Positions 536 to 63,318 of a stretch of DNA of 64,000 bases are shown piece by piece. Source of the stretch: Dipteris shenzhenensis (Eukaryota). Position numbers and translations under genes: made by a program. The stretch lies in NCBI GenBank assembly GCA_047967505.1, contig CM106538.1, one strand, 5' to 3'. The first letter of the stretch is position 1, and each line of letters begins with the position of its first letter. The notes under the pieces were generated by a model. That model worked only from the letters and a program-made list of their open reading frames with translations. It had not been told where the DNA came from and ran no database searches.

Positions 536-559
536 GTGGTATATCTCTTTGATCTTTAA

Positions 560-37672: not shown

Positions 37673-40600
37673 TCATGGAGGGATAAGACGAGTATGAGTG
37701 AACAGCCATCGGGGTGGTGAGTAATGCCACCGAAGGCCCTGCGTAGTCTGCGCGAAGAAGAGGCCCTGTGTGTCCCAAGCCCGGAGGAAGCGTCTCCGCT
37801 TCTCCTGACCGGCCCGGGAGTCTCCCTGAATCTGGTCCCACTGGCCTCTGAGAGTATGAATAATCTCACTCCAAATCTCCGCCATGATCTGGGCAGTAGA
37901 TAAGGAGGTGCCACCTAGGATCTGCGCGCAGCGTGAGGTCCAGATGTGCCACCCTGTGATGCTGCTAATAATCTCCCAGAATGGCTGCCTCTCCTGGACT
38001 CCTGTATCAGCCTCTGCTAGGTGCTGTGGGATGCCCTCGAGCGGTCCCCACATCCCCTGTGTAATAAGGAAAGTGGGGTCCTGCTGGCATGCCTCGAATA
38101 AGTGATGAAGACCAGGTGCGGTGCTGCACCAACAGAACGCGCCCCAAGTGATCAATCCTAGCTCTGGTGCTGCGCGAGTAAGAATCCCAAAAGTCCACCT
38201 CCACACTTCCTGGGCGCGCGTGCAGCTCCACAGGCAGTGTTTTGGTGTCTCCTCATCCGCATGGCAAATCTGGCAGCAACCGTCCTGGCCTATCTGCCTC
38301 AACCAGCTCCCCACTGGAAGACCTTTGTGGGCAAGAAGCCACAGGAAGTATGAGATCTTCCGCGGCCGCCAGCTCTCCCACAAGGCCTTCTAGAATGCCT
38401 GCAAAAAGAACCTAGAAATACCCTGTGCGTACCAGCTGGGTCGCTGGGTGGGGGGGCGGCTCTGCATCCTCCTGAGAACTCGCCTGGAGTCGTACTGTAG
38501 GCGAAGAAGGAGGTCGGCCCCTGTCCTGTCACAATCTCTGGCCACCACCACTCTCCTGGGTCCCACTCAAGCTCTGACAAGGCCCGCCCCTCCCAGAGCC
38601 AAAGGCGCCAAAGCTGCACCTGGTCCTGCTCGATGCTAGGGTCGGTACGCCAGACCTTCCCCAAGAGGCCTACGACCCGAACCCTCTGCCACGGGAGTAG
38701 CGGGTCGATGAGCGCACCCTCTCTCCTGAGTCGGCCATCCCCAGAGACCGCGAAGAAGGAGATAGAAGAGTCATCCAAACGTCCTGCGATCACCAGTGGA
38801 ATGCCGCGGGGGGTGAACTGTCCCAGCCAGCGGGTGTCACTAGGCATGAGAATCTGATGCTCAGGTGGAACCAACCAAGCAGCTGGGATCGCACCGTCGA
38901 TCTCCGTACGTCTCGCCTGGGCTCCACGTGCACCTCCAACTGCGTCTGCAAGATCAGTCATCTCCAGATGTCTGTACGTATCCCTCCAAACACAAAGGGA
39001 TCGGGCTGGCCCCCTCATCCAGCCGTCCCACCTGATATGTGATCTCTCCCCCAACTGAAGACCCTCGGCATCTCTGACCTGACCGTTCCAGATAAGCGGC
39101 TGTCGATCGATCTCCTCCTGACAGCTGGGAGGGGACTGAAAGAGACTGAGACGGAGCCGCCTCCAAACCATGAGGAGGCTACGAACGAGTGGGGAGCGGG
39201 GCTGAGTGAGCGGGGCGGAAGTGAAGATCCACCTGAGGGACGGTAGCCACTCTCCACCTCGGCGTGGGACACAAGAGCCGACTCCCTGCTGAAGTAACAT
39301 CTTCCACGTCTGTCCCCCTGGGGTCAAAAACCGCGAATGATAAGCTTGCCTAACAAGGCCTGACTCTGAAGCTCTGGATCAATGACCCCCAGACCACCCT
39401 CAGCCTGCGGAAGAATGACTGTCTGCCAAGCAACCCTGGCTCTGGTATCTCTATGCCCATCCTCCCCAGACCAAAGGAAGTTCCGAACCAACCTCCTGAG
39501 CTGTGCCACGCTGGATCTCGAGAAGCACCAGCAGGAAGCCACATACCAAGCCGTGGCTAGGAGGACCTGGTTAACTACCAAGGCACGACCTGCAAGGGAA
39601 AGCTTAGCAGTGCTCCAGAAAGCCAGCTTCCGTCGGATGGAATCTAGCACCGGGAGAAACTGCTGAGCTGGCGTGATGTCTAGGCCAACCTGGAAGCCAA
39701 GGTATCTAGCTGTCTGTCCACGTGGAATCCATCTGAAACCCAGAAATCGCCCCCACTGAGAACACGCCCCCGGGTCTGTGAGAAAACCAACTGATTTGTT
39801 CCAGTTGATTTTCGCACCAGCGGCCGAGCAGAAAACCTCCAGGGCCATCCGCACCCTCTCTAGCATCCTCTCATCGTCCTGGACATAAAGGCTGTATCAT
39901 CTGCGTACTCCGAGTCTAGAAGCTCCGTGTCCTCCTGGAGTGGAAGGCGAACACCCCTGAGCCCTGTGGACCTCGCCCGAAGGTAGTAAGTCATGGCCTC
40001 GGCGAAGAAGAGAAACAGGTAAGGAGCCAGGGGACAGCCCTGACGTACTGATCTCTCCAAGCTAAAGCGCTCACCCATCCTACCTCCAATGATGACTTTG
40101 CTAGACGCTGTCCTGTACAAAGCTGAGATACCCTGAATCCAACCTGCCGGGAAACCTAGCCGCTCCAGAGTCCCCTCCAAAAAGGACCAGTCCACGCGAT
40201 CGTAGGCCTTCTCGAAGTCGAGAAGTAAAATGGCAAGGTGTGATCCGCTGTACTGAGCCCACTCCGCCGCCTCTGAAAAGGTGAAGACATTATCCAGGAT
40301 ACTGCGATCCTGGACAAAGCCTGTCTGAGTGTCATGGACGAGGTCTGGAAGTAGAGGCCGAACTCTGGCACTGATCATCTTGGCGAGGATTTTGTAGGTA
40401 GTGGTAAGGAGAGTGATCGGACGCCACTGGCGGATCTCCTGTCTATCTCCTCCCTTTGGGATGAGGCAAATCAGTCCTGAGGAAAGGCTCTCTGGCATCT
40501 GACCGCTGCTGAAAATCCCCTGCAGAGCTGCAAGGAGGGGCTGATGGATCTGGTCCCAGAAGGAGGTGAAAAATGCTCGGGATAGCCCATCCTCACCTGG

Positions 40601-42061
40601 GCATTTCTGTCCGTCGATAGCCATCAAGGCCTCCAACATCTCATCTGAGGTGAACGGTGGCAACAACGTCGCCTGCATGCTAGGCTGGACCAGGGATGGA
40701 ATGTGCCTCCACACCTCCTCACGGGCACGACTAGCACGAGGGGCAAGCGGCTCCTGCTAGAAGAGGGTCCTGTAGAAGTCAGTGGCCAACCCCAGGACCT
40801 CCCCCGGATCCGTAACGATGTGACCATCCGCTGTCCTGAGACTCTGAAGCTGATCACCTGCAGCTCTCTGGCCGTGCGTCCTGAAGAACTCCCTGCACAT
40901 CCGGTCACCCTTCCGGGCCCAGAAGGAGAGAGAGGCGTGATAGGAGAACTCGGAGCGACGCTGGAGGGTCTCCTCCAGGAGGGCTCTGGCTCGAAGGGCC
41001 TAGATCCGAAGCTCCTCCGAGCCCGGGGAAGCCTGTTGAAGTCGCTGAATGGAGGCGAGGTCCCTCCGAAGAGCTCTCTCTCTGCCCCACCAATCCTGTC
41101 GAACCTGTAGGGCTGCGAGCTGGCAGATCTGGCTGGACTCCTGCAGAGCCTGCGCGACCGAGTCTACCAGATCCACGCCCTCCCCCCAGTCTCTGTCCCA
41201 AAGACTGCAAATGCTGCTGCGCACGTCCACCCTCGAGAAGATGGAGTCGGGAATCCTGCATGATCGGGGGGGGAGAGTCTGGGCTGCCGAATCTAATGAT
41301 AGGAGCACAGGCGCATGGTCGGAGAGTGTCGTCCCTGGAACTATACCCGCCTGGCCGCCTCTGCTGATGGCCCAATCACTGACATAAAATCTATCAAGCC
41401 TCTCTAGGAGTCTGCCTCCTTCCCTGCGGAAGTCCCAAGAGAAGTCCAGGCTCCCGTGCCAACGCCGGAAGGACGGGTCTCTCCAACTGTCCCTCCCTCC
41501 TGTCGCGAAGATGAAAGAGTCCCAAGCTGACTGCTCTGCCTGAGCCATACCTATGAACTCCGGATCTCTGCCCTGCTGGTTCTCCAAGGTCTCCAGGTTG
41601 TTGAAGTCTCCTCCAACAATCCAGGAATCCATGTCTGGAAGAATCCCTGTAAGTGTCCTCCAGAAGGTGGCTCTGCATCGGAGGTCTGTGGGAGCATAAA
41701 TGTTGAGGATTCCTATTTTGGATCCCTCCAAATTCAGGCCTACCCAAAGGGCTCGGCCTGGGATCAACGTGCCGTGACCGAAAACTTCCTGGGCTAACTG
41801 CTCGCACACGGAGGTACAGACACCCCCACTCCTCCCCTGTGCGCCGATCGAAGGCTCCCAATAAGTGTAGGAGCGTCCAGGGAGAACCTTCCCGCAGCTA
41901 CGGGAATGAGCCGCAGAAAGCTTGTGCTCCTGGAGCAAAAGTACATCCAATCGACCAATCACTGCAGGCTGAAGTTCCTGTCGCAAAATGAGCTTCCTGG
42001 GACCACGGGTGCCCGAAGAGTGAAACCCGTTCACATTCCAGGATACGAGGTGTAGGCTCAT
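37673..42061 (-). pseudogene. LINE ORF2 (APE endonuclease, RT, zf-RVT), broken by stops and frameshifts
   Basis: Motifs SWNVNG, LLQEH, GGDFN, RLDRFY, SDH; WRPITLL, DFEKAYD, VRQGCPLAP, YADD; CQICHADEETPKHCLWSC. Confidence 0.95.
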
Positions 42062-42148
42062 GGAGAGGGATGGGGGGCTGCGAACAGCTGTCTACTCGCG
42101 GTCGAAGTCAAAGAAGAATCAGACATATCGGAATGGAGGTGCTGCCGC

Positions 42149-44063
42149 TTATGAGAAGGTTTGGAGGGGGAGATGGGGTCGTCCTGCCCGTTCTTCAACA
42201 CCTTCAGCAATGGCGAGAGGCCTCTGGTGCCATGAGCAAATGCTTTCTCGAGCCAGCTCGAGATCTATGAAGTGGTCATCCCGTAGAAGGTTCGGAGTTT
42301 CTGTTGGGACCAAGCTCATACATCCTAGGGAAGAGGCCATGACAGGGGGGGTCTGAGGATCACAATCAGTCGGAAACGTTTGGCAGCGCAACGCCACCGC
42401 AAGCGCACATCGCCCTCGGACCACTGAGTCTCGAGGAGCTGCCCACCGGACGGGCCTATCCAAGAGCAAATCTGGGCGTGTGTCTGCTCTCTGAGAGCCT
42501 CCCAAACCGAGTCGTCTGTCCAGGTCTCGGTGCCATCGCTGAGGAACGTGAAAGCGAAGCTAGGGCCATCCCTGGGAGCCAAGGCAGCAATCTTCCCATC
42601 CGCCCCTTTGCGGAGCAGGAAGATACTAATGTCGAGACAAGCCGGGAAGGTCCCAAGGTCGGCCACATCCAGGTAGTCCCAGGGGCCAGATCTGTAAAAG
42701 TCTCGAGGAAGCTCTCTCTCCTGGAGCTGAGACCCAGCTGAGTCTGCCACTGAGGGGCTAGCGGGAAGGGAAGCCTGCTCCACTGGTGGTATAGACTCCG
42801 GGTGTCCTGCCATCGGGGGGGGAGGGGGAGGAGGCTGCGGGATAGGCGACTCGGGCTCCACGGAGGCGACTGGCGGAGAAGGTGGAGGAGGTGGAGCGGG
42901 GGCTGCACTCGGCTGGAAAGCCGACGGTGCAGCTAACTCTGTAGGAGAGGCGAGGGGGACAGGGGGGGGAGGGAGATGGGGATGCATCTGGAACTGGGGC
43001 TGAGGGGGAGGAGGAGGAGACTGAGGAAGAGGAGGCGGGGGCTGAAACTGCGGGTCGGGCGAAGGGGGGGGAAACTGGGGAGAAGGCGGGGGGGTGGGAG
43101 AGAGGAGGATCTGAGGCTGTGGAGGGCGGGCTGCCGTCGAAGAAGAAGCTCTCCCAGGTCCCTGGGGCATCTGCCTGTCAGGTCTCTGGAGTGCTGCTGC
43201 AGGAAGGGTAACCTCTGCCTCCTTGCCTTTATCCGAAATCTTCTTGTTCTTTCCTCTTTTCCTTTGAACCTCGGTCCAACCGCCCACTACCTCTGGACCA
43301 GGCTCCGACTGCCTCGGCTCCTCCTGACGTGGCTGTCTGGGGGGGGGGGTGGCGGGGAGGGTCGAGACGAGCTGGCGAAGCGTGGACAAGCAGCCGCCAA
43401 GTGCCCAAAGCCGTGGCACCGCAGGCACTGACCTAGCTGTCCAGTGACTATCATGCTCTGGGTGATGCTGCCGGCACCTGTCACAATCTCGATCACTGCA
43501 GGGAGAGTCGCAGGATCCGCCACAGCCACACGGACTCGGGGAGCTCCTGCCGTGGTCACCGCGTCGGCAAAGGTGTCGTGCATAACCCAGCCAAAATGGG
43601 AGCCCAAGTCCCTGACAATCGGCCACAGCTCAGTAGCAAGCCCTGGAAAAACTAGTGTCACTGGGTGGCAAGGTATACGGAACCGAACATCGAAATCCGC
43701 TGCGCTGAAACCACGGTACCACGGGACTATCATGATGATCTTCCCATCCACCGATGTGGGGGAACCGGCAATCAGATTGCTCGCAGCTTTCTCACTGGAG
43801 AGTTTGAGCCAGAAGATGCCCCTTCCCATAAGGGCCACCTCCTCAATATGGCCATCCTCTAGCAGGAGAGTGGACTGGAGCCTGTCCCTGATGGTAGACC
43901 TGGAGGGGGAGTGTCCAATGACTCTACCATAAACAGAGGTACGAGCAAAGTCAATGGCTACCTCCTGAACACGAGATGATTGTTGCTCTGTCAGGATAAC
44001 GCGGTAGGCATCTGGAGAGGGAGGGTCCGATTGGGCCTCCGGATCCGGGCAGGGGGCCGCCAT
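42149..44063 (-). pseudogene. LINE ORF1 (RRM/DUF4283-like, zinc knuckle, proline-rich, extra C-terminal region)
   Basis: MAAPCPDP start at 44063; CLRCHGFGHLAAAC; frameshift in the G-run at ~43340. The 3' end is approximate. Confidence 0.8.
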
Positions 44064-44339
44064 ACCGCCAAGACTAACTGCAAGCTTCCGATGAGGAAAA
44101 AACAGGCTGCCACCCAAGAAGGGGATGAAGCGGGAGGTGGAGCCTGGGGGTGAGGCGGGCGAGGCGAAGTGAGGGGACGGGGGGGTCGAAACGGAGGGCG
44201 GGGTGAAGGCTGCGGGGTGCGGGGAGTATGGAAGGGCGCGGGAGGGCGGGGGGGGTGGGGTTGGAATGGCGGGGGTGGAGGGGTGAAGCGGGGGGCGGGG
44301 AGAGCGGAATGAGGCGGGGGCGGGTGAAGCGAGGGGGTG

Positions 44340-44680
44340 AAAGAGCAACGAGGGGGCGGGTTGGAGCGGGGTGGATGGCGAGGGAGCAGCGAGGGGCGGG
44401 TTGGAGCGGAGGCGAGGCGAGGGCGAGGGCGGGTTGGAGCGGAGGGGGCGGGTTGGAGCGGAGGCGAGGGGGTGGGTTGGAGCAGAGGCGAGGCGAGGGC
44501 GAGGCGGGTTGGAGCGGAGGGGGCGGGTTGGAGCGGCGGCGAGGGGCGGGTTGGAGCGGGGGCGAGGGGCGGGTTGGAGTGGAGGCGAGGGGGTGGGTTG
44601 GAGCGAGGGGGCGGGATGGAGCGAAGGCGAGGGGGCGGGTTGGAGCGAGGGGGCGGGTTGGAGCGGAGGTGAGGCGAGGG
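44340..44680 (-). repeat. GC-rich tandem repeat in the LINE 5' UTR
   Basis: About 12 copies of GGG(C/T)GGGTTGGAGCG on the + strand. Confidence 0.9.
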
Positions 44681-45569
44681 GCAACGAGGTGGCCGGCGGG
44701 GGGGGGGGGGGGAGGGGGGACGGGGGTCGAGGGCGGAGGGGGAGGGGTGGAGGTGGTCGCGGCGAGGGGGGAGCTAGGGGGAGGTAGGGCTAACGGCGAG
44801 AGGGGGAGGGGAAGCTCGCAGGAGCTCAAGATGGCTATGAGTGGCTGCAATCTTGCAATCTGCCATATGAAACTTCTTCAAGAGACTGTCAACATACTTG
44901 AGTTGACACATGAATGTGCCATTTGAATCTCTCCAGAACTCAATTCCAAGACAATAGTGCATAAGTCCAAGATCTTTCATGTCGAACTCTATAGATAAGT
45001 CTTGTTTCAATTTTCTGATGAAGCTATCCTTGCTTCCTGTCACAATCAGATCATCTACGTACAAAAGTGCAATAGTAATTTCTTCCCCTTAAACTTTGTA
45101 GTAGAGAGTATGATCTGCATTGGATTTCATGTATCCTAGATCAGCAAAATACTTGTCAATTCTACTGTACCAACTTCTAGGTGCTTGTTTTAAGCTGTAG
45201 AGACTTTTCTTGAGATGGCAAACCTTATTCTCCTTTCCTGGTTCAACATAGCCTACTAGTTGTTGTATGTAGACTTCCTCGTCTAGGTCATCTGGGGCTC
45301 CAAATGGGGCCCCACAGCTCAAGAGTGGGCTACCTCAAGAAATGCTCCGTCTACCCTTAGTGCGGTTAGTCATGGGATGCCTTCCCGCACTTGCATGTAG
45401 CCTAGTTGGCAGTGTGCCAACTCTATTTAAAGCCGTCCAGCCATCAGGCCACACATGGCCCCCATCTGGTGTCCAAACCAAGACCTACCGGATAACCGAG
45501 CTACTCAAATGCCTTCTCCTCATATGGGGGGCTTATAAGTAGAGTTAGCTGGTTCTCGAGTAATGACAT

Positions 45570-46560
45570 GAGAGCAGAGCATTGATATCTAACACATGCA
45601 TCATGCTTGGGTGTATAAAATAATGCCTCAATGGCCTTCGAGGAGTGCAAATGGGACCAAATGGCCATGATACTTTACACAACCCTTAAAATCACCTAAT
45701 TTAAGGCCTATCCAAATTATTATTCCCATTGTGTACCATTTTCATGGCCAATATGCCATATTTGTATGTTTGTGCCCATGCATCATGCATGGGCATACAA
45801 AGAAATGCCTCAACAATGCAAAGTCTTAAAATCACATAACTTAAAAATTGGGAGCCATGGCCATGATACTTTACACCAAACTTAAAATCAACTACTTTGA
45901 GGCTGGTGCAAAGCATCATGCCATCGGTTACCATTTGCATGGTCAAGTAGCCATACTTTCATGTTTTGGACCATGCATCATGCATGGATATACAGAAACA
46001 TGACTTGGTATTCTTATAAGAATGCAAAAGGGTCTTGATGGCCATGATAATTTTCATGGGAATTAAAAGGACATAATTTAAGACCCATGCAAAGTATCAT
46101 GCCCATCAGGTACCATTTGCATGGTCAAGAGTCCATATTGCCATGCTTTTGCCCATGCATCATGTATGGGCATCCAAAATAATGCCTCGGTGTCCTTCTA
46201 GGAATGCCAAAGGGACCCAATGTCTATGCTAAGTTTCATGGGACTTAAAATCACCTACTTTAAGGCTCATGAAAAGTATCATGACCATCGGATACCATTT
46301 GCATGGTCAAGAAGCAATATTTCCATGTTTTTTCCCATGCATCATACATGGATGTACAAAGAAATTCCTCGATGGTCTTGTAAGCATGCAAATTGGAACC
46401 AAAGGCCATGATAATTTGTAAAAGTCTTAAATAACTTAAGGCTTGTACAAATTATCATCTCCATCGCGAGTACCATTTGCATGGTTAAGAAGCCATATGT
46501 TTTGGCCCATGCATCACATGGGAGTGCAAAAAAATGCCTTGGTGGTCATAATGATATGTC
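45570..46560 (+). repeat. Diverged ~180-bp tandem repeat related to the main satellite (same orientation)
   Basis: GCAAAGTATCATG(C)CCATC.G.TACCATTTGCATGGTCAAG at ~45908, 46089, 46270 and 46446. Confidence 0.75.
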
Positions 46561-46930
46561 ATAATTGTATGCTATACAAATCAAACTCTATGAGAACATG
46601 GTACCCCCATGAGAGTTTCATGGTGTAACTTAACATTCTTTGGATCACAAAATTGACTATACAACGTCCTATCCATGAAACATTTCATCGACACTTTTAT
46701 GGACAAAAATATTGACTCTAGTAGAATTCCAGAGAGATTTTGAATAAAAATATAGATGGAATATAGAATTTTCAACAATAATAAAAAATAATATCTAGTT
46801 GTTCCATGTTTTGTTGTCATGTATGGATTATGCAATAACCTAGCTGTTGCTGTAAATATGAAGTGTAACCTTTGTAGATCTCTTCAAGCTCATCGAAATC
46901 CAAAGAAGAGAGTACTAAGAGAAAATATTT

Positions 46931-47466
46931 ATCAATGAGCCTTGTGTGATTGTGCACAATGAAAAGCACAAATAAGGAGACTAGACACCATATCAATATC
47001 ACACATATAGAGACATGAACACTTCCAAGCTTTACCTGAGATAGAGCTGAACGAAGAGGTAGAAAACTTGTTTTGCCTTGTTTTTTAGTGAATAATTTGT
47101 CTTTTCATGTGACTTTGTTGAGTCAATTAACTTAATTATTTTCATGCAGGGAGATGAAATTGTTTCAGAAAGTGTGAGAGCACATGCATTGCAATCATTA
47201 TCAATGAGCCTTGTGTGATTGTGCACTATGCAAAGGACAAATAAGGAGACTAGACACCATATCAATATCACACATATAGAGACATGAACACTTCCAAGCT
47301 TTACCTGAGATAGAGATGAACGAAGAGGTAGAAAACTTGTTTTTCCTTGTGTTTTAGTGAATAATTTCTCTTTTCATGTGACTTTGTTGAGTCAATTAAC
47401 TTAATTATTTTCATGTAGGGAGATGAAATTGTTTCGGAAAGTGTGAGAGCACATACATTGCAATCA
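46931..47466. repeat. ~269-bp tandem duplication
   Basis: ATCAATGAGCCTTGTGTGATTGTGCAC at 46931 and 47200, with near-identical downstream sequence. Confidence 0.9.
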
Positions 47467-47584
47467 TCCTCATGAGTCGATGTTGACCCAAGGATACCAA
47501 ACACTCTTAAGAAAAGATTGAGAGCTAGAAGATCAACATAATAGCCACATTGAGGAGGAGGACGCACTAAATGAGGATGAAGTA

Positions 47585-49869: not shown

Positions 49870-50706
49870 TATGAGATGTGTGAAAATTATCATACCCATC
49901 ATACAAAGACACGTGCGATAGGACCACACAGATGCATATTTTTTTATCTCAAGGTATGAGACTTAGTTTCAAACAAGAAAATATGCATGCTTGACAATGT
50001 GAATGATATCAGATGGTCATCATACTTTAAGAGGCATGTGCAAAGTATTGTACACATCTGACAAAGGCACATGCATTAGGAACATGCCAATGCAAATTCT
50101 TTGATACTCACATATGAGACATGGTGAAAAATAAGAAATTATGCATACCCAATGATATAAATGGTATTCAATGGACATGATATTAAGCACGAGTCTTAAA
50201 AAAAATAAGATTAAGGTGTGTGCAAAGTATCGTACCCATTGGACAAAGCCACACACGATGAGAGCAAGAAAATGCATATTTTTGGATACTCAGGTGTGAG
50301 ACACGGTGGAAAATAAGAAAATATGCGTGCCCAACAATGCAAAAAGTGTTTGATGGGCATGATGCTTTGCATAAGACTTACACTCAATAAGAGTAAGGCT
50401 TGTACATGCTATCCTACCCATTTGACAAAGGCACATGTGATAGGAGCACACCAATGCATATTTTTTGATACTCATGTATGACATGTGGAAAACACAAAAA
50501 TATGCATGTCCAACCATGCAAATGATATCATATGGGCATGGTAATTTGAATAAGGTTAAGGTGTGTGCATGGTATTTCACACATGGACAAAGGAACTTGC
50601 AATAAGACTGCACCCATGGGTATTTCTTGATACACACATATGAGATGCAGTGAAAAATAAGAAAACATGCATACCTAATGATGAGGATGGTGTCGTATGG
50701 ACATGG
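49870..50706 (-). repeat. Diverged ~180-bp tandem repeat (reverse orientation relative to the main satellite)
   Basis: Recurring GTGCAAAGTAT..TACCCAT, CAAAGGCACATG and AAATATGCATGC motifs at ~180-bp spacing. Confidence 0.75.
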
Positions 50707-50978
50707 AAGCCTTTGCTTCGCACCTTCCACCTTCCACTAACTTGTTCACACACTAGTTGAGAATCTCCTTGCACCTCCAATTGCTTGGCATGATGTTCTT
50801 GTGCCTTTTGTAGCCCAAAAATGAGCGCCGAGTACTCAGCTTGATTGCAAGTACTTGCGGGCGAAGACTTGCTGTAACAAAACTCCTCACCACCCGGTGA
50901 AGTGAGCTTCACACCCACGCCAGCCGCCTTGGTCAAAGGTTTGTAAGCTCCATCAAATTGAAGAATCCAAGATGTCAT
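50707..50978 (-). pseudogene. Stand-alone archaeal-type RNase H ORF (ORF C), 3'-truncated
   Basis: MTSWILQFDGA...TCNQAEYSALIFGL...LEVQGDSQLVCEQVSGRWKV, then runs into repeat DNA. Confidence 0.85.
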
Positions 50979-51202
50979 CACACCAAGACTAGAATTCGGA
51001 CATCCCAAGTTTCTCGGTAGTCCAAGATAGGTAGGAGGAGAGGGTGGGGAGAATTCAACACTTGAGCCAAACGTTCAGCACCAAATAAACTTGCAATTCT
51101 TTGTTGATAGTTTATCTTAAGCCCAAAAAGAATTACAATTTGAAGCTCGAAATGAGGCACAAAAGGCTGATTAGGTACAAATGGATTCCTTGGTCGAAAC
51201 AT
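50978..51202 (-). CDS. Unknown 74-aa protein (ORF B)
   Basis: MFRPRNPFVPNQP...QQRIASLFGAERLA...TWDVRILVLV. Homologs at 15560-15786 and 18655-18845. ATG overlaps the upstream stop. Confidence 0.65.
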   Translation of the reverse strand: MFRPRNPFVPNQPFVPHFELQIVILFGLKINYQQRIASLFGAERLAQVLNSPHPLLLPILDYRETWDVRILVLV

Positions 51203-51612
51203 TACCAACCATAGCCAAGGCCTAGAAACCTTTGTAATGAGATTGTGAAATAACCATTCAGGACGAGCTTTTCCACAGGAATCAACAAGCAGATGCGCCA
51301 AATCTCCCCCCAAGCTTGGGGAACATCCCACCCTTCGAAGAAGGAAACTGTTTTGATTACCTCTGAAGCAGCAAGTAGTTCGATCACCGCACAATGAGTA
51401 GAAGTAAAGTCAAAATCCTCCCAGCGTATCAGTAGTTCGTCACCCTGAATCATCCACGGTGTGTCATTCCACCCGTCATCACCATCAATAATGCACTGGA
51501 CAATCAGCCGTTGAAGGTCGACATGAAGATCAAGGAATACATCTCGTGCATTGGTAGCCGTAAGGTGCGGAGGAACAGGCACCAATTCCTTAAACGCGTC
51601 GAGAAGTGACAT
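51202..51612 (-). CDS. Unknown 136-aa protein (ORF A)
   Basis: Intact ATG-to-TAA frame of ordinary complexity whose stop overlaps the ORF B start. Confidence 0.55.
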   Translation of the reverse strand: MSLLDAFKELVPVPPHLTATNARDVFLDLHVDLQRLIVQCIIDGDDGWNDTPWMIQGDELLIRWEDFDFTSTHCAVIELLAASEVIKTVSFFEGWDVPQAWGEIWRICLLIPVEKLVLNGYFTISLQRFLGLGYGW

Positions 51613-53239
51613 AAATGTCCACCCTTCTCGTGAGGCGTGCGTCCGTGAAGTGGGCTTGGAGAAGTTCTGAATTGGCGATCTAGCAAGAGAAGTGGATAGA
51701 GAACATAAAATGAAATATTTTTGCTTTTTACAACAAGAGCAAACTCCTTATGGTTAGAGAGTTACAGCTCCCGCAATTTCAATATATGAACAAAAATCAT
51801 GACATTTTTACCACTTCCAACTTGTTGGCCCAATGATAAGACTTTCTTTTGTGAAGGGGAGGTCTTGGGTTCCAATCCTACTCTTTAATAAAAAGAGAGG
51901 AGAGGAGAGGAGAAGGAGAAGAGAAAGAGAAGAAGAAGAAGAGAAGAGATAGGGGGGCGCGGGATCTGCTGTTACTCTTTTGCAGGGGCTTAGGAAATAG
52001 TCCGCGACCAGAGCAGTCGAGAGAACTGTCGCATAGAAAACTGACCACAACTAGAAGTCGCGGCAGTCCAGAGAACTGTCCGCAACCAGAAATCGCAGCA
52101 GTCCAGAGAACTGAAGCGCAGGAACGAAGCGAATGCACGTGCAGTAGCTTAGAAAGAGCACAGATGGTATAGTTTTGTTGATGTAACCCGTACGAATAGA
52201 AGATTCACCACCAGCCATGGAGATTCGTATCCCAGCAGCCACACCAAAACTTTTAGCCGGAAAAGAAACCGAGACCAAAGGCTAGAGACTAAGTATGGCG
52301 ACGCTCAAAGGCCATAGAGAAAAGGAGATTACGAGGGCGAAGGGATGTCATAGGGGTGAATAAGGAATTAGAAGTGGAGGGAAGGAAAAGGGAGACTATG
52401 ACACAAGGGGAAAGGGAGAGTGGGAAGAGAAGCAAGTACATGATAGGAAGAGGAATGTTGAGATGTAGACATCAAGGGAAGTGAACCATACTTTATTGGA
52501 AAGGAGGGATGAGAGGGAAATATCAAAATACTAGCTAGGTGGCTTTACAAGAATGAGCGTGTCCCATCAAGGAATTGCCCCTTCCTTTTATAGCCAAAAG
52601 AGGGGGTCTCTCCACATTAATGTATCCTCCCACATGCATGGCATGTGTGGAAAAGTCTCCCATGTGGGCTAGGTGGGTACGCACTCTCAATTGTATGCAA
52701 CAACCCTTTGCCTCAATTTTCCACATAAATCAAGCCCCATATCTCAAGTCTTTGATACTCCCTTGGTCTCTTTCCAATTTTATAATAGGTTCAAACCTCT
52801 AGGAGGACAAGTGGAGGGTTGGCACAAGGAATCTTGCCACCTCATCCTACTTTCCCCATTATTTAACTAGCTCTCTTTGTCCTTCTATACCTCCCCCACA
52901 TGGGCCTATCCCATATGGAGGGAATAACTCAATATAATAGCCATCTCCACCCATTTTATATTGCTTCTCACATGGACTTTGAGCCATATCTCAATTATTG
53001 CATCCTAGGTGGAGGGGTGGCACATGGAGGAGCCATGCCACCTTGCATTTTATAATATTACTATTATGGATTATGTACAACACACCTTATAGGTCCTCTT
53101 ACATGGAAGGGTGGCACATGGTCATGCCTTGCCACCTCAACCTTGGGACCTATGCACACCATATTTGATTATACTATTGCCACACATACAAACACACATA
53201 CATATTAATGCCTTTTTCCTTAGACAATTTTATCCATAA

Positions 53240-56120
53240 CAATACCCAGGTATGAGCCGTGGTGGAAAAATTAAAAATATGTATGTCAAACAATGCGAAT
53301 GGTATAGAATGGGCATGATACTTTTCATGGGATTTAAAGTGAATAATATTAAATTGTTTGCAAAGTATCATATCCATCAAACAAAGGCACATGCAATGGG
53401 AGCTAGAAATGTGTATTTTTTGATACTCAGGTATGAGATGCAGTGGAAAGCAAAACAATAAGCATGCCAAGGATGCAAATGGTGGCCGATGGATATGATA
53501 CTTTGCACAAGAATTAAATCAGATAATATTAAGGCATTTGAAAAGTATCATACCCATACAACAAAGACAACAAAGAAAATAAAGAAAGACATACAACAAA
53601 GACAACAAGAGCATGATGATGCATATTTTTGATACTCTTGTACAAGCGACATAGTGGAAAAAAAGAAAATATGCATGCGCAATTATGTAAATGGTAACCT
53701 ATGGGTACAATACTTTGCATGAGTATTATAGTAAATAACTTTAAGTCATGATGCTAAGTATTGTACCCATACAACAAAGCTACATGCGATAGGACCACAC
53801 CGGTGGGTATTTTTGGATAGTCATGTATGAGACGTGGTGGAAAACAACAAAATATGCATGCCCAATGTTGGAAGTGGTTTTTGATGGACATGAAAATTTT
53901 CACCGTACTTAAATTGAATATTATTAAGGCATGTGCAAAGTATTATATGATGGGGCAAGCAAATGCATATTTTTTGATTACTCAAGTATGAGATGAGATG
54001 GAAAATAAGAAAATAAGCATGCACCAATGATGCAAAGGGTGTTTCATGGTTTATCACTTTACACATGACTTAAATTTAATAAGATTAAGATGTGTGCAAA
54101 GAATTTTATGCATCTGACAAAGTAGCGTGCAACAGGAGCACACCGATGCATATTTTCCTCATACTTAGATCTGAGACGAGGTGGAAAATAAGAAAATATG
54201 CATGCCCAACAATGTGAATGGTGTATCATAGACATAGACATGGTAATGCAAATGACCCTTAAAGTAAATAGAATTAAGGCATATGAAAGTAGGTGTGTAT
54301 TTTCTGATACTCAAGTATGAGATGTGGCATAAAATAGGAAAATATGCATGCCCAACGATGCAAATGGTTCCCTATGGGTATGATACTTTGCAAAATAACT
54401 CAAGTGACTGATATTAAGGCATGTGCAAATTTTTTTACCCATCCAAAAAATGCACATATGATAGGATCATGCCGATGTATATTTTTTCAATACTCATGAT
54501 GCAAATGGTGCCCTATGGGTATGATACTTTGCAAAATAACTCAAGTAATCGATATTAAGGCATGTGCAAATTTTTTTACCCATCCAAAACATGCACATAT
54601 GATAGGATCATGCCGATTTATTTTTTTTGATACTCATATATGAGGTGTGGTGAAAAACAAGAAGTGTGCAAAGTGTCATACCCATCATACAATGGCACAT
54701 GTGATACAAGCATGACGATGCACATTTTTTGCTACTCATGAAGGAAACATGGTGGAAACTAAGAAGATATTCATTCCCAATGATGCAAACCATATATTAT
54801 GGAAATTATAGTCTTCATGGGCATTAAATTGGATAATATTAAGTCATGTGCAAAGTACCATACCTATTCGACAAAGGCACATGCAATAGGATCATGATGA
54901 TGTGTATTTTGTCACACTCATGTATAAGACACAATGGAAAATAAGAAAATATGCATGCCCAACATGCAAATGGTATATGATGGGTATGATAGTTTGAACA
55001 AGAATTAAATAATATAGAGTAAGATGTGTGCAAAGTATTGTACCCATTCGCCAAAGGCACAAGCAATAGGACCATGATGGGTGTATTTTTTGATACTCAA
55101 GAATGAGACATGGTGGAAAACATGAAAATATGCATGCCCAGTTATGGAAATGATGTCCAACAAACATGATACACTGCACCGGATTCGAAGTGAATAAGAT
55201 TACTTCATGGTCAAAGTATTATACCCAGCCGTGACAAAGGCACATGCAATGGGAGTAAGCGGATGCATATTTTTTATACTACACTTCAGGCATGAGAGAC
55301 ACAGTGAAAAACAAGAACATAAGCATGTGCGATGATGAAAATGGTGTCTAATGAGCATGATACTTTGCATGGGCCTTAAAGTGAATAAGGTTAAGTAATG
55401 TGAAAAAATATCATACCCATCCAAAAAAGGCACATGCAATAGGAGCATGCCGATGCATATTTTTTTATACATAGGTATGAGACACAGTAGGAAACATGAA
55501 AATATGCATGTCCAATGGTGCAAACGGTATGATACTTTGCATGGGACTTAAAATTAATAATATTAAGGTGTTTATAAAGACTTGTACCCATTCAAATACT
55601 GCAAATGTGATAAGACTACACCGATTGATATTTTATGATACTTAGGTATGAGATGTAGTGGTGGAAAATAATAAAATATGCACGTTCAACTATGCGAATG
55701 ACATAAGATGGGCATGACACTTTGCATAGGCCTTAAAGTGATAAATATTAAGTGGTGTGCAAATTATTGTCTACATCTACAAGAGAAACATGCAATAGCT
55801 AAATGCCAATTTTTGATACTAACGAATGAAACGCGGTGGGGAAAAAGAAAATATGTATGTCCAACAATGAAAATGATATAGGATGGGCATGAAACTTTGT
55901 ACAATCATCAAAGTGAATAATATTAAGGAGTGTAGGAATTATAGTACCCATCGGAAAAACACACATATAATGGGAGTAAGAAATTGCGTATATTTGATAC
56001 TCAAGTATGAAATAGAAAATGTGTATAGTTTGATACTCAAGAATGAGATATGGTGGAAAAAATAGAAAATAAGCATGCCCAACAATGCATACAATGTTTG
56101 ATGGGTATAATACATCGCAC
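53240..56120 (-). repeat. Diverged ~180-bp tandem array, continuation of 49870-50706
   Basis: ATGGG.ATGATACTTTGCA ... TGCAAAGTA...TACCCAT units at ~180-bp spacing (e.g. 54848 and 55028). Confidence 0.8.
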
Positions 56121-57486
56121 AAGCACTACAAGGCATAGGCCCTTTTTCGATAAAAATACCGATGCTTTTTACATTAAATTTTTTTTTTTAAATGGGCGCA
56201 AACATCGTTATTAAAGTCGTTAAAAGCGTCAAAAAAGAAGCGTCGCTATATAGCGACGCTGATAAATGTCGCTATATAGCGACACTGGTAAACGTCGCTA
56301 TTTAGCGACGATTAACAGAACTTAAAAAAAAGTATTAGTGGGGCTAAACAGGACCATAGCAAGCCCTCTTTTGCTAATTTTTTTTTTTAAATGGGCGCAA
56401 ACATCGTTATTAAAGTCGTTAAAAGCATCAAAAAAGAAGCGTCGCTATATAGCGACGCTGATAAACATCGCTATATAGTGACACTAGTAAACGTCGCTAT
56501 TTAGCGACGATTAATAGAACTTAAAAAAAAGTATTAGTGGGGCTAAACAGGGCCATAGCAAGCCCTATTTTGCCCCACTAATGCTTTTTTTTAAATATAA
56601 TTACAAAAAAAAGTTTTTTATTACAAAATCTCCCTTGCGAAAAGGGTGATACAAAATGACTCAAATGAAATGATCGAGCAACAAAAGCATATACATGTCA
56701 AACATATACAACATTGTTTGTTACAAAATTACCCTTTCAAAAAGGGTGATACAAAATCGCTCAAACGAGCGGACATACAAAATGACATACATGGTGAAGT
56801 ATATGCAAACTGTTACTACTACTACTACTCATTCGAATCGTCCACGTCGTCCTTGTCCTTGTCCTCATCTTGTTGACCTTGGTCCTTGTGAGCTGTGCCT
56901 TCTCCCTATTCCTTGTCACGTGCGTCTGATCCTTGGCCCTGGTGATTGCTCGCCTCCGGTGATGGGACACTTGAGCTTGCACCTTAAGAGTGAACCATAT
57001 AAATTGAAAATTATATTGGAACTTAAAGAATAAAACAATTTAAAAAGTGAGATTACAAGTAGGAGTAGACTTATACCATCTGAATAGCCACCTCAACCCA
57101 ATCAACCGTTGCTCCCATTGCCTCTTGCTCAATAAACCACGGCTTTGTTCCTATGCAAAACGCACGTCACATCTCTGCATCTGTAGGAAGATGACCCATC
57201 ACAGCTTGCTGTGGATCCAATTTACGAGAGTTAGAGTTAGATAAAGTGCATGTAAGATAGTGCATGTAAGATGTAGTAAAACAAATAGAACGATACATTA
57301 AATGAGAAGAAGTAGACTTACCATGGTTGCCTCGAATGCCAGCCGTATGCCTGCACTAAAGTGCGAAGTACCTACATTGTCCAGCCATCTCTTCGCAGCC
57401 CTCTTCTGACCCTTGAACATATTGGGATGGTCCCTATTCTGCTTCTTGAAGAACTTCCAATCAGCTTTGTCTACCTAGCTAGGTTT

Positions 57487-57842
57487 TGTTGAGATATCGA
57501 GCTCCACTCAAGATATGCCAGGGTGACCGTTGGTGGATACTTATGTCACCGACTTGTTAGCTAGAGATGCGGTTGGTACACCGCCCATGAATAATAGCTG
57601 GATGACAGCTATCCTTATCTACACTAGTTCGTGGCTCAGTTAGTATGCCACCTTAGTTAGTTGAGTTTGGTTTGAGACCCACATATAGGGTTCTTCTATT
57701 TCTTTGTACTTGAGTTCTTTTGGCTTTCACAACTAAGAAGAGGAAAACTGTTTTCAGCCTCCACCTTTGTGTGTATTCCCCCATTTGTGATTGTGAGAAA
57801 GCCGCAAGTGAGACTCCTTCCCTCTCTCCCACTATCTTCACA
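57487..57842 (+). repeat. Copia-4 5' LTR
   Basis: Direct repeat of 62966-63318. Confidence 0.97.
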
Positions 57843-58386
57843 TGGTATCAGAGCCTTGTTTGTGGTAAGGAGCTCAAGAAAGCAAGCCAAGTTCGTGGTG
57901 TCCTGGTAAGAGGACCAGTGTTGCTTTCCTATTTCGAGTTTGGGAGCAAATCTCTGCAGGTAGCACAGCCAGAAGTGCAGGAGTGCACTGTTTCAGATTG
58001 AGACGCCCTTCGCGGTGTGGCGAGAGTGCAGTATATGCTACGGGAGAGGGCAAAACCCTTAGTGACTTTATTTTTCTGATTTGAGGCCGTTTCGGGGCCC
58101 GTTTTGAAGGCGGAAGTTCTTCGCAGGCACTCAGAAAAAGGCCCTGTTTTTTGCTGTGCGACCACTGCGCGGCTAGTCGGTGGAAAGGTGCCGCAGAAAT
58201 TGCATCGTATGCCTGTGTGCAGAGATATTGGGAGTTGCAGATTCATGCCTATTGCCTGTTGATGCAAAATCGTCACTAGGAAGTGACTGTGTGGTGAAAT
58301 ACCACTCTCGTCGGTTTTGCAGATCTGCCCGTGTGAGGCAAAAGCTGTGTTTTTTGCAGTGACATAATATTTTGCAGTGTTCTGTA

Positions 58387-61300
58387 ATGGCATCTGATTC
58401 TCTTTCACAGATTGTCACTGAAAAGCTTGACAAGAACAACTTCCAGGCATGGAAGTTTAGAATGACGAATTTCTTGATGGGAAAAGGCTATTGGGAATTC
58501 ATTACAGGAAATGAAGAAGAACCTGTTCTTCCTAATGTTCCCAGTCAACAGGAAATGCAAGCATTCAAAGGATGGCATGAGAGAGCCAGGAAAGTTATGT
58601 ACTGGCTGTCTATCAGTATTTCGGACTCCATGATTGTGCATATTCAGGATGCAAATACGCCAAAGGAATCATGGGATACTTTGGCAAAAATGTATAGCAC
58701 AAATACGCAAGCCAGGAAAATGCAACTCAAACAAGAGTTGCACAATGTGCAGAGAGAAAATTTGAGCATAAATGACTACCACATGAAAGTGAAGAAAATT
58801 GCAGATGCACTTGCTTCCATTGGGTCGCCAGTGGATGATGATGATTTGGTTTCTGTGACCTTGAATGGTCTAGGAAAGGATTATGCACAGTTCCGGACAT
58901 CCATTGCCGTCCGTGAAAACTTTCCTGATTTTGAGGAGTTGATTGCTCTTCTAATTTCTAAAGAGCAGAGAAATGGGGGTGCATCTTCTTCAGCAGGAAC
59001 TTCAAAAGAAACTGTCTTCTACTCAAATGCTGGCAGAGGTAGAGGCAGAGGTAGAGGAGGCCGATCTGCAGGCCGTGGTGGAAATCAGAATATGCAGCAA
59101 AGGCAAGAAAACCAGTCCTATGCAGGAGGACGTGGGAACTCTAGAGGCAGGGGGAGCCAAAGAGGCCGTGGTGGATGGCAGAGAGGCCAAAATGCAAACA
59201 GCAATATTGAATGCTACTATTGTGGCAAAATGGGTCATATGGCTAAGGACTGCTATAAAAAGCAGAATGACATTATGAATGGAAAATTGCAGCAAGGCAA
59301 TTATGCATCCTCTAGTAGACAGGGTGATGACAGAAATGAGCATTTGTTTATGGTGCAGCATAGGACAAATTCTGTAACAAGTTCAGAAGAAAGCAATGAT
59401 GTGTGGTATGTTGACTCGGGTTCGTCAAACCACATGACAGGTCACGCTGAATAGATGCAGGATGCAAGAAAAATGGAAAAACCAGGATTTGTGGAGACTG
59501 GTGATGATACTGCACATCCTATTGTGCAGATTGGCAAAATTCCTTTGTCTATGCAGGATGGGAAAAAGAAATACTTGTCTGATGTATTTCATGTCCCGAA
59601 CATCACCAAGAACCTGGTTTCTGTTGGTCAGATGGTTGAGCAGGGCTTGCAGGTCAGATTTAATCCTCATGGATGCTTTGTTGAGGATATGAAAAATAAT
59701 GGTCGCTTGATAGCAAAAGGAAAGAAGAAGGGCAAGATGTTTACATTGGATGCAGACATGCCTGAATTGAGTGCAGCAATGTTTGCACATGGGACCGGTG
59801 TAGTTGCAAATATTGATATCTGGCACAAACGCATTGGTCATGTTAATATACAGCGACTTAAATCAATGCAAGCCCAAAATATTGTTGCAGGATTGCCAAA
59901 ATTCAAGGTTGCAGAAATGCACAAGATTTGTGAAGCCTGTCAATTTGGGAAACAGACAAGGAAACCTTTTCCTAGGCATGTTCAAGAGAGTAAAAAGCCA
60001 TTGGAAGTAATCCACTCTGATGTGTGGACTACAAAAGCTGCATCTATTGGAGGCTGTCACTATTTTGTCACATTTATTGATGACTTCAGCAGAAAACTGT
60101 GGGTGTATTTTATGAAAAAGAAAAGTGAAGTGTTTGGGCACTTCAAAGCTTTCAAAGCTATGGTTGAAAAAGAAACAGGCCTGCAAATAAAATGCCTAAG
60201 GTCAGATGGAGGGGGAGAGTACCTCTCAAATGAGTTTGCAAGGTTCTTGTAGGAGCATGGTATAAAGCAGCAATATTCATGCAGTCATACCCCACAGCAA
60301 AATGGAATTGCAGAAAGAAAAAACAGGCATATTGGAGAGGTATCTCGGGCTATGCTAAATGAAAAAGATCTACCAGATTATTATTGGGCTGAAGCAGTTG
60401 CTACAGCAGTCTATATAATGAACAGGACTCCCACTGCAGCAATACATGGCATGACGCCAGAGGAGATGTATACTGGTAGGAAACCAGATATTTCTCATTT
60501 GAAGATTTTTGGTTGCATTGCTTATGTCCATGTGCCAGGGAGTTGAGGTCCAAGTTGGATCCAAAAGCTGAGAAGTGCATCTTTATTGGTTATTCTCTAT
60601 AGCAGAAAGGGTATAGATGCTATAACCCTTCTACACGTAAGTTCACAGTGAGCAGAGATGTTGTTTTTGATGAGATGAGCAGCTGGTATAAAGCAGTAAA
60701 TGTGATGATTGATGTAGATGCACAAAATGGTAATGCTGCACAGAATGCACAGCAGCAATCACAAAATATCAGTGGACCTGGAGTGTCCTCTACCAGTGGT
60801 TCACATACTTCCCCATGGACAGGCAGATTGAGATCAGGAGAATCCCCTCAAAGCAATGCAGATAGTGGTACGCAGGTATCACGAAAAGGAAAAGAGAAGG
60901 TAGATCAACCCATGTTTGATGTGAATGCAAGTCACTCTTATGTGGATGGTGAGTCCAGTGGCTTAGAACAGAGCATTGATGATGAGTTGGGTATTCCTTC
61001 TGTTGTTACACCTGGAACTCGGGGGGGTCACTATGTATAAACCCTCTATATCACGTGCGTTCAAGGCCTATATTTAAAGTCCCTTATATGTAAAAATTTT
61101 CATTAATAAAATGTACCCCTTTTCTATACAAATCTGTAAATTTTTTCCAAACCTATTTTAAATAGTCCCTTATGTATATTTATTTCTGTAAATTTTAGAA
61201 ATAAAAAAAATCCTTCTGTTGAACTCACGTGATAGGGTTACATATGATGAGTGACCCCCCCGAGACCTGGAATAAGGAAGACTAGGGATGTTTTGAGAGC

Positions 61301-63005
61301 ACCTGGAAGTGAGCCTATTTTGCGCAGGTCTACCAGGGTTAGGTATCATGTGGATAGGCTGAAATATGATGGATTTACAGCCATTCACTATGCCTATATG
61401 GTCAAAGTGATACACGAACCAGAACTCACTTCTTTTGAGCAAGCCATGGGAAATGAAAAATGGGAGAAAGCCATGGATGAAGAAATGGATGCCTTGGATG
61501 CTAATGCTACATGGGAATTGGTGCCTTTGCCTAAAGGCAAGAATGCAATTGGTTGTAAGTGGGTTTATAAGATCAAGCACAATGCAGATGGTTCTGTGAA
61601 TAGATACAAGGCAAGATTAGTTGTCAAGGGGTATGCACAGACATATGGCATTGATTATGAAGAAACTTTCAGCCCGGTTGCAAGGATGGCAACCGTAAGA
61701 GCAGCCATTGCTATGGCTGCATCAAAGGGATGGTCTTTACATCAGATGGATGTAAAGAATGCCTTCTTGCATGGTGATTTGCAAGAAGAGGTCTTTATGG
61801 AGCAGCCAGCAGGTTATGTTCATGCTACTCATCCTGAGTTTGTTTGCAGGTTGAAGAAAGCCTTGTATGGCTTGAAGCAAGCACCCAGAGCATGGTCTGA
61901 CAAGATAGGACAGTATCTTGTCACTATTGGCTTTCAGATTTCCAAGGAAGATTTCTCACTCTATGTGAGAAAAACAGAGAAAGGGATTATGCTGCTGGTC
62001 ATTTATGTTGATGATTTGATCATCACAGGTGATAGTGATGAAGATATCCTTCATGTGAAAATGCTATTGAGGCAGAAGTTTGAGATGAAGGATTTGGGAG
62101 AGCTGCGTTATTTCTTGGGCATTGAGGTGATTAGATCACCAAGTGGGATACAGCTCTTATAGAGGCAGTATGGATTGGACATGCTGTCCAAATATGGGAT
62201 GATAGGCTGTAAGCCTATTTCAGTTCCTTTGGAGCAGAATGTGAAGCTGAGCACAGATGCAGGTGAGCTTCTGGAAGACCCTACTATGTACAGACGCATA
62301 GTAGGAAGTTTGATTTACATGACTATTAGCAGGCTAGATTTGAGCTATGCTGTTGGGCTAGTAAGTCAGTTTATGCAGGCTCCAAGGAAACCACATTTGG
62401 ATCCGGCTAGATGCATACTCAGGTATGTGAAGTCCACATTGCAGTATGGACTATTTTATGAGGCTGGGGTTCAGATACAGTTGCATGGATACACTGATGC
62501 TGATTGGGCTGGTAGTATTTCTGATAGACGATCTACCAGTGGATATGTGTTCTCTTTTGGGAGTGCTGCAGTCACTTGGAGCAGCAAGAAACAGCCTACA
62601 GTTGCCTTGTCGAGCACAGAGGCTGAGTACAGGGGTGCAGCAATGGCTGCATGTGAGGTAGCTTGGTTGCATAAGCTACTCTATGATATGCATCAGTCTA
62701 TAGATGGGCCGGTTGTCATTTATTGTGACAACATGAGCAGTATACACTTGGCAAAGAACCTAGTCTTTCATGCTAGAACAAAGCACATTGAGGTGCATTA
62801 TCACTATGTGCGGGAGAAGGTTTTACTAGGTCTTATTGATCTAGTTTATGTCAGCACAGAGGATCAGGTAGCTGACATATTCATGAAAGCATTGGGCACA
62901 GAGAAGCTGCGCAAGTTCAGAGACCTGCTTGGTGTGCAGGATTTGGGATTGAGCTCGAGGGGGAGTGTTGAGATATCGAGCTCCACTCGAGATATACCAG
63001 GGTGA
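58387..63005 (+). pseudogene. Copia-4 gag-pol (a few stops, one frameshift, MITE insertion)
   Basis: Motifs CYYCGKMGHMAKDC, WYVDSG, LRSDGGGEY, YKARLVVKG, IYVDDL, TDADWAG. Stops at 59452, 60250 and 62160. Confidence 0.96.
61018..61264 (+). mobile_element. MITE copy 3 (247 bp)
   Basis: Perfect TIR; 8-bp TSD ACCTGGAA (61010-61017 / 61265-61272). The empty site is visible in paralogous Copia-2 near 12255. Confidence 0.97.
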
Positions 63006-63318
63006 CCATTGGGTACTTATGTCACCGACTTGTTAGCTGGAGATGCGGTTGGTACACTGCCCATGAATAATAGCTGGATGACAGCTATCCTTATCTACAC
63101 TAGTTCGTGGCTCAGTTAGTATGCCACCTTAGTTAGTTGAGTTTGGTTTGAGAACCACATATAGGGTTCTTCTATTTCTTTGTACTTGAGTTCTTTTGGC
63201 TTTCACAACTAAGAAGAGGAAAACTGTTTTCAGCCTCCACCTTTGTGTGTATTCCCCCATTTGTGATTGTGAGAAAGCCGCAAGTGAGACTCCTTCCCTC
63301 TCTCCGACTATCTTCACA
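62966..63318 (+). repeat. Copia-4 3' LTR
   Basis: Direct repeat of 57487-57842. Confidence 0.97.

Follow-up and report, generated by a model that had tools for sequence, protein, structure and literature searches.

The minus strand of a 64,000-nt stretch of Dipteris shenzhenensis DNA (contig CM106538.1 of assembly GCA_047967505.1; the whole stretch is referred to below as the window) carries three open reading frames (ORFs), A, B and C, that are chained by one-base overlaps of stop and start codons and end in an RNase HI-type protein. The ORFs lie within a 2.5-kb unique segment (50709-53241) which, in a self-comparison of the window, is bounded on both sides by a 182-bp satellite. We conclude that this segment is probably the 5' part of a defunct member of a multi-copy long terminal repeat (LTR) retrotransposon family and that the three-ORF cassette is a trait of that family. 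The order in such an element would be 5' LTR, primer-binding site, long leader and cassette. The element would have inserted into the 182-bp satellite, and a later deletion would have taken everything past codon 90 of the third ORF. Intact members would encode three products: a 136-aa A protein, a B protein of ~74 aa and a 154-aa RNase HI with all four catalytic residues. In complete copies gag-pol may follow the cassette, and the free RNase H would act in trans during reverse transcription.

ORF A (51202-51612, 136 aa), ORF B (50978-51202, 74 aa) and the open frame of ORF C (50577-50978, 133 aa) are all on the minus strand and were taken from the ORF listing of the window. At the A/B junction, TAATG (51204-51200), the final A of the TAA stop codon of ORF A is the first base of the ORF B ATG, and at the B/C junction, TGATG (50980-50976), the final A of the TGA stop codon of ORF B is likewise the first base of the ORF C ATG. 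The frame change is -1 at each junction. Upstream of the respective ATG, 69 codons are open in the B frame and 32 in the C frame; neither extension contains an ATG, and thus each start codon is the first in its frame. Among the window ORFs of at least 70 aa there are three pairs with a 1- or 4-nt overlap and a single three-ORF chain, which is A-B-C. When the window was block shuffled 200 times the mean number of overlapping pairs was 0.145 and no shuffle (0/200) gave a chain. The coordinates and the shuffle control therefore confirm the original prediction, made from the letters of the window, of three minus-strand ORFs joined by TAATG and TGATG. That prediction had placed five codons between the ORF C ATG and the FDG motif, which are actually separated by seven residues (MTSWILQ), and had considered this Met a natural N terminus, which agrees with an RNase H match that starts there (position 2 of the Pfam profile). 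Note that a second pair of minus-strand ORFs (53161-53765, ~100 aa each) overlaps by ATGA. As this pair lies within the satellite and crosses the satellite/LTR border, the tandem repeat most likely generated it by chance.

The boundaries of ORFs A and C recur in relatives. Six homologues of ORF A reached E<=0.001 in a search of 1.84 billion representatives. P0016, the best of them, is also 136 aa long and aligns from residues 1-136 to residues 1-136 with no gaps (79/136 residues identical, 58%; 109/136 similar), ending in the same GYGW sequence as ORF A. In the 90% cluster of P0016, 9 of the 11 listed members are 136 aa long, and family members having only 31-39% identity to ORF A are of 135 and 147 aa and end near the same place. 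As length and stop are kept in these relatives, the ORF A stop is old rather than a lesion. For ORF C a near-length search gave two clusters at 88-90% identity, P0043 (25 members) and P0044 (8 members). The window ORF C is 88-91% identical to the 154-aa proteins P0043, P0044 and P0080, which have the same Met start. The length of 154 aa is shared by 14 of the 23 listed ORF C members and the starting sequence M[TS]SWILQFDG by all 23. Members of the ORF A cluster and of the second ORF C cluster share the sizes of their encoding contigs in three cases (1403, 8128 and 1283 nt), and because these sizes coincide the A-family and C-family members are very probably on the same contigs. At 1283 nt, a contig is long enough to hold all three ORFs. 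Searches of longer proteins found no relative of ORF A among 286 candidates and nothing above 42% identity for ORF C. An ORF A profile gave 44 pattern matches in IMG/VR and 103 in the JGI metagenomes with no relatives in either, and in the JGI metagenomes P0043 retrieved only one unrelated locus (L001, 33% identity).

The single relative of ORF B is the N-terminal 70 residues of P0049 (50/70 identical, 71%). P0049 reads B and C in one frame, and this would be expected if A, B and C had once been one continuous ORF, with the overlaps being one-base frameshift lesions. Frequent damage among the copies is consistent with that explanation: several proteins of the family stop at codon 93-94, and the window copy is itself cut short. 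However, P0049 has lost an internal stretch and shifts frame close to its end, and its B-C fusion is taken as damage. Moreover, the ORF A stop is at the same residue in most listed members of a lineage that is only 58% identical and close by in the 135- and 147-aa members, most listed C members run for 154 aa from one Met, and RNase H begins naturally at that Met. We consider a former continuous ORF very improbable. 

The layout was also examined in contigs of four DNA runs from two studies, which were aligned to 50400-53400 where they were at least 80% alike. Run X1 contributed 164 contigs, of which 16, 62, 62 and 24 fell in the identity bands 99+, 95-99, 90-95 and <90, respectively. Segment 50709-53241 is a multi-copy repeat. 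For the X1 and X2 contigs the match to the window breaks off at precisely 50707 and 53241, beyond which they carry sequence of their own, which they share. Since the copies continue past both borders without satellite, the satellite would be the context of the insertion rather than part of the element. Four of 30 listed pieces (there are 183 more) cross a junction, records 1 and 9 over B/C and records 2 and 11 over A/B, and all four are free of gaps. None of the seven listed indel places falls within 50707-51612. Three listed substitutions are in ORF B and three in ORF C, and every one is synonymous; that at 50992, synonymous in B, would alter a residue if the C frame were extended upstream. 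This pattern points to purifying selection on the B and C frames, although these six changes are a small sample picked by read support and 152 further differences lie beyond those listed. The separate frames and the ORF boundaries thus appear to be a family trait rather than damage of the window copy. The overlaps are not private lesions of the window copy: the relatives and contigs gave no case of A-B-C as one continuous ORF and, apart from the damaged P0049, no sign that the overlaps are missing elsewhere.

ORF C matched the Pfam RVT_3 profile over positions 2-86 of 123 (E 5.8e-15, 55.7 bits, cut-off 21.6) and more weakly the RNase_H profile (E 9e-06, 26.4 bits, cut-off 25.8). Together with the homologues, these matches define 50709-50978 (minus) as the first 90 codons of a 154-aa RNase HI-type protein. 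The frame then reads on for 43 codons into the satellite up to the first stop (50577-50708, minus), and this read-on is not a gene. Because the frame runs into the 182-bp satellite after residue 90, the window ORF C lacks the fourth catalytic Asp: it keeps D9, E48 and D72, and the C-terminal third with D122 is lost at the satellite border. We assume here the usual roles of the four acidic catalytic residues (DEDD), all of which are present in the full-length relatives. The window copy, truncated in this way, cannot make an active RNase H. From 50707 on, where they diverge from the window, other copies (X1 and X2) keep the RNase H frame open, as seen by comparison with P0043, up to codon 94, which is a stop in them and an arginine in full-length members. 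Five listed proteins (P0045, P0048, P0072, P0074 and P0076) end at that stop, codon 93-94, and many copies are therefore dead. The proposal that the RNase H is expressed as a free protein thus holds for the family, in which the 154-aa length and the common Met are widespread, and fails for the window copy, which is truncated at residue 90.

The sequence behind which the cassette lies has several properties of an LTR. The putative 5' LTR (52249-53241, minus, ~993 bp) begins with TG at 53241-53240, meets the satellite at this border and has copies in other contigs, those of the four runs covering it at 80-99% identity. Read directly, it contains three GGTGGCA...TGCCACC-type repeats. In other copies (X1 and X2 contigs) position 53241 is directly preceded by a G-rich purine run, which looks like a polypurine tract next to a 3' LTR. 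One X2 contig (record 14) matches 52249-52444 and then continues into an unrelated microsatellite, thereby marking the other end of the LTR. A putative TATA-like box, CTATAAAAGG (52584-52593, minus), was read directly within the LTR and lies ~970 nt before the ORF A ATG, the leader counted from this box being 988 nt long. A primer-binding-site-like 25-mer that starts with TGG (52222-52246, minus) is found 3 nt past the LTR end. Its complement ends in CCA and can be parsed as T-loop, T-stem, acceptor strand, discriminator and CCA. Between this site and ORF A is the leader (51613-52221, minus). It includes a tandem repeat with a 35-nt unit at 52035-52114, the number of units differing among the other copies, and a CT-rich tract at 51893-51949. 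From the TATA-like box to ORF A, 11 ATGs occur. The TG start, the purine run, the TATA-like box and the primer-like site together support the prediction that the cassette sits behind an LTR.

Several observations weigh against assigning the segment to an LTR retrotransposon with a conserved three-ORF cassette. The 3' end of the LTR is not the canonical CA and could be placed only within ~3 nt. The complement of the 25-mer may be tRNA-His-like. ARAGORN and Rfam searches of the region found no tRNA gene and no Rfam match at the gathering level, and a literature search on tRNA-His primer sites in LTR elements returned nothing useful. The tRNA-Met primer-site consensus TGGTATCAGAGC had no match in a scan of 50709-53241. 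ORF B is known from one relative that is itself damaged, and their 71% identity is compatible with neutral drift. In addition, we built a tree of 19 rows, 17 of 23 RNase H sequences plus two from the window, leaving out six partial domains (P0015, P0052, P0054, P0061, P0062 and P0064). In this tree, which has long branches, the ORF C family joined the RNase H of the L1-type long interspersed nuclear element (LINE) of the window with support of 91/89, and it fell outside a clade of four pol-embedded domains of Tat LTR elements (100/99), no moss Tat sequences being included. Finally, this copy is without gag, pol, a second LTR or a target-site duplication. Self-BLAST of the window gave no second copy of 50709-53241, and the nearest reverse transcriptase (RT), 5.5 kb away, is part of an L1 LINE that also has endonuclease and zf-RVT domains. 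As the window copy is truncated, the missing gag-pol and second LTR are uninformative about the family.

The satellite borders were considered in the same context. One array (49874-50708) flanks the break in ORF C, its homology reaching 50705-50708, and another (53242-56132) flanks the LTR, its homology stopping at 53242. The phase of the satellite repeat is offset by ~59 nt between the 50709 and 53242 borders, and the borders are therefore not two halves of one clean insertion site. The ~182-bp satellite makes up ~4.7 kb of the window in three arrays, the third of which (45595-46547) is inverted relative to the other two, the arms being 72-87% complementary. Rearrangement of a satellite block could have produced this locus, or the arrays may be the subterminal repeats of a large DNA transposon. 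If the inverted arrays 45595-46547 and 53242-56132 were such subterminal repeats, the segment could be a captured host gene fragment within a transposon or satellite rather than an LTR retrotransposon. Alternatively it could be part of an endogenous pararetrovirus, since chained overlapping ORFs are described as typical of caulimovirids (PMC5902531). The lack of gag-pol and of a second LTR for this element in the window would fit either origin. Against both origins stand the TG start after a purine run in other copies and the TGG primer-like site after the repeat end, and the other copies pass both borders with shared sequence of their own, not satellite. We give these two origins together a very small probability and retain the LTR retrotransposon as the probable source of the segment.

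Profile searches on ORFs A and B, which the original prediction had called for, gave no family match for either. ORF B had no Pfam match, and in the language-model Atlas its recognition was 1866 with a best score of 0.84, giving no lead. ORF A had no Pfam match, and a Pfam search with 13 ORF A family members gave nothing below E 0.15. A sequence profile search of the PDB with ORF A had a best E of 0.2. An AlphaFold model of ORF A made from a 13-row alignment (mean pLDDT 77.6, pTM 0.72) predicts three N-terminal helices followed by a small alpha/beta part. When this model was compared with the PDB by Foldseek the best E was 0.54, which is not significant, and a VIA-align comparison with 48,161 chains gave a best Z of 4.8, within the noise range. 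In the language-model Atlas an F-box cluster ranked third (score 0.90, 105/256 shared features) and another F-box cluster sixth, a weak lead. The distant members contain a 'LELPxDLQ' stretch that we presume to be F-box-like, again only as a lead, and an F-box profile hit at E<=5 was found in none of the 13 members scanned (13/13 negative). By its homologues, ORF A belongs to a conserved small-protein family. In a comparison of the window with P0016/P0080, which probably represent one and the same relative lineage, ORF A is 58% identical whereas the first 90 residues of ORF C are 88% identical. ORF A thus seems to change much faster than the RNase H, yet it keeps its frame, its length and many conservative replacements. 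The difference would be due either to A evolving rapidly or to subfamilies having exchanged the A module. A protein in contact with host defence would be expected to show such a pattern.

The two exact overlaps argue for coupled termination and restart at TAATG and TGATG, which we tentatively consider the most likely single mechanism for translation of the chain. Ribosomes terminating at these sites would restart to make B and C. The original prediction had put forward termination-reinitiation, and the signals we looked for do not back it. The sequence UGGGA, which we take to be a motif of the TURBS (termination upstream ribosome-binding site) type, occurs at 51007 (22 nt before TGATG) and, within ORF A, at 51330 and 51423. 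Two results tell against coupling. The UGGGA motif is not conserved: the Trp-Asp codons that carry two of its three occurrences are Trp-Asn in P0049 (before TGATG) and in P0016 (ORF A), and the motif is therefore destroyed in these relatives. Furthermore, four 146-nt stretches around the junctions folded no better than shuffled sequences (z -0.44, +0.49, -0.07 and -1.29). Leaky scanning was rejected as implausible, because ORF A contains 10 internal ATGs.

The lack of a conserved TURBS-like motif and of unusual structure at the junctions is in keeping with a second possibility, in which the ORFs are real features of the family, but B and C are expressed from spliced or internally started subgenomic RNAs, or B is an open spacer between two genes, A and C. 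ORF B, lacking a family, a fold or an Atlas lead and having one relative at 71% identity, would suit a spacer. Restart after long ORFs is reported normally to need a TURBS motif or local structure (PMC10275272), and this would apply to reinitiation after the 136-codon ORF A. However, such uncoupled expression does not account for two exact one-base overlaps in series with each downstream ATG being the first in its frame, nor for the synonymous character of 3/3 listed ORF B substitutions and the gap-free junctions of other copies. We regard it as a lesser, though appreciable, possibility. 

A third way to express the chain would be for ribosomes to make two programmed -1 frameshifts and so fuse A, B and C, in the manner of retroviral gag-pol. 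Such frameshifting is common in retroelements, both junctions are -1, and the B and C frames are open for 69 and 32 codons upstream. We consider this quite improbable, as no in-frame X XXY YYZ slippery heptamer is present in ORF A or ORF B (two heptamers were found, both out of frame), no stable structure was found downstream of the junctions, and the gene calls of relatives begin C at the same Met. Restart at the shared bases and separate RNAs would then be left, and coupled restart stays our preferred, if tentative, mechanism.

Taken further, the cassette might be an 'accessory operon' ahead of gag that is translated by two serial restarts without a TURBS. Its A protein would serve as an adaptor resembling F-box proteins and direct ubiquitin ligases of the host at a silencing factor, and its free RNase H would work in trans on the replication intermediate. 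We think this full scenario unlikely. If it were true, serial restart without a TURBS would be a mode of translation undescribed for plant LTR elements. If both junctions are indeed used by restarting ribosomes, the family would provide a simple natural plant system for the study of how ribosomes reinitiate once a long ORF has been translated.

Elsewhere the window holds a nest of further transposons. An almost complete LINE of the plant L1 type (36814-44926, minus) has endonuclease, RT and zf-RVT domains by Pfam, several frame breaks and, in its 5' part, a GC-rich tandem repeat of 23-65 bp (44343-44773). A second LINE fragment (RVT_1; 51-2280, minus) ends in an RNase H domain (51-566) with two in-frame stops. 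There are three copia elements, of which that at 57534-63309 (plus) has 300-bp repeat ends that are 98% identical and an exact TGGTATCAGAGC primer site (57843-57854); its gag, integrase and RVT_2 ORFs are split by frame breaks, and it is probably a young insertion. Two tandem units of 198-221 bp, 93-96% alike, are built around the palindrome AGCGTCGCTATATAGCGACGCT at 56177-56596, and between the satellite arrays a 269-bp unit is tandemly duplicated with 96% identity (46929-47467).

The nearest neighbour of ORF C in the tree is the RNase H of the plant L1 LINE (window 51-566, minus), and both match RVT_3-type profiles. They differ in that the LINE domain is the C-terminal domain of ORF2, whereas ORF C is the start of an independent protein of 154 aa that is encoded behind an LTR, and their identity is ~40% over 88 columns.

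Termination-reinitiation at UAAUG/AUGA is described for influenza B M1/BM2, calicivirus VP1/VP2, hypovirus CHV1 and the SART1 retrotransposon (PMC10275272; PMC2699510). As in those systems, the stop codon of a long ORF here shares a base with the next, out-of-frame AUG (UAAUG and UGAUG). The systems as described have one junction and depend on a TURBS or an RNA structure close to it, whereas the cassette has two serial junctions at which neither signal was found to be both present and conserved. The Caulimoviridae, which are reported to have a polycistronic pregenomic RNA and transactivator-dependent reinitiation (PMC10275272; PMC5902531), resemble the element in being plant reverse-transcribing elements with a long AUG-rich leader and closely abutting ORFs. 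In contrast to the element, they have no LTR; in the segment no transactivator-like protein was recognised, and the primer-like site is not of the tRNA-Met type.

Extra ORFs (eORFs: PMD, PMD-CC and Tr28) have been described in Tat/Ogre elements by Ustyantsev et al. 2015 (PMC4408406). Like ORFs A and B, these are sense-strand accessory ORFs of undescribed function that precede gag at an LTR element's 5' end. ORFs A and B are much shorter, are chained by overlaps and have no Pfam match, including to PMD and Transposase_28, and hence ORF A is not of the published PMD or Tr28 type (PMC4408406).

The closest parallel is Tat 'structure #4', or 'pre-capsid', in which a separate additional RNase H (aRH) ORF lies upstream of gag (PMC10508981; Prokopeva et al. 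2026, PMC13468544). The original prediction knew of no such arrangement in a plant LTR element; a stand-alone RNase H behind the 5' LTR is already published and is not novel in itself. Such an aRH ORF was reported in four mosses and the clubmoss Selaginella tamariscina (Biryukov & Ustyantsev 2023, PMC10508981), early-branching angiosperms and ferns being described as having only the pol-embedded structure #1 (PMC10508981). The label 'Tat-type' given in the original prediction is unproven, because the copy has no RT (nor gag) and its RNase H groups with the L1 LINE domain rather than with the pol-embedded Tat clade. The likeness to structure #4 is that an extra RNase H of the RVT_3/RNase HI type forms its own ORF in the 5' region, before the main genes. 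The differences are that here ORFs A and B precede the RNase H in an overlapping chain, and that the published ORF is upstream of gag whereas this copy ends inside the RNase H ORF with no gag-pol seen. The passages on Tat elements in PMC10508981 and PMC13468544, supplementary tables aside, make no mention of further ORFs before the solo RNase H or of stop/start overlaps. Relative to those passages, two conserved ORFs chained to an RNase H by one-base overlaps, together with the fast-changing ORF A, appear new. Structure #4 with two extra ORFs in front would be the best-fitting known model for the cassette. How an RNase H outside pol works from a separate ORF is a question raised in PMC10508981, and the family offers a concrete case in which an intact 154-aa RNase H with a defined start and stop would be coupled base-for-base to two other conserved ORFs.

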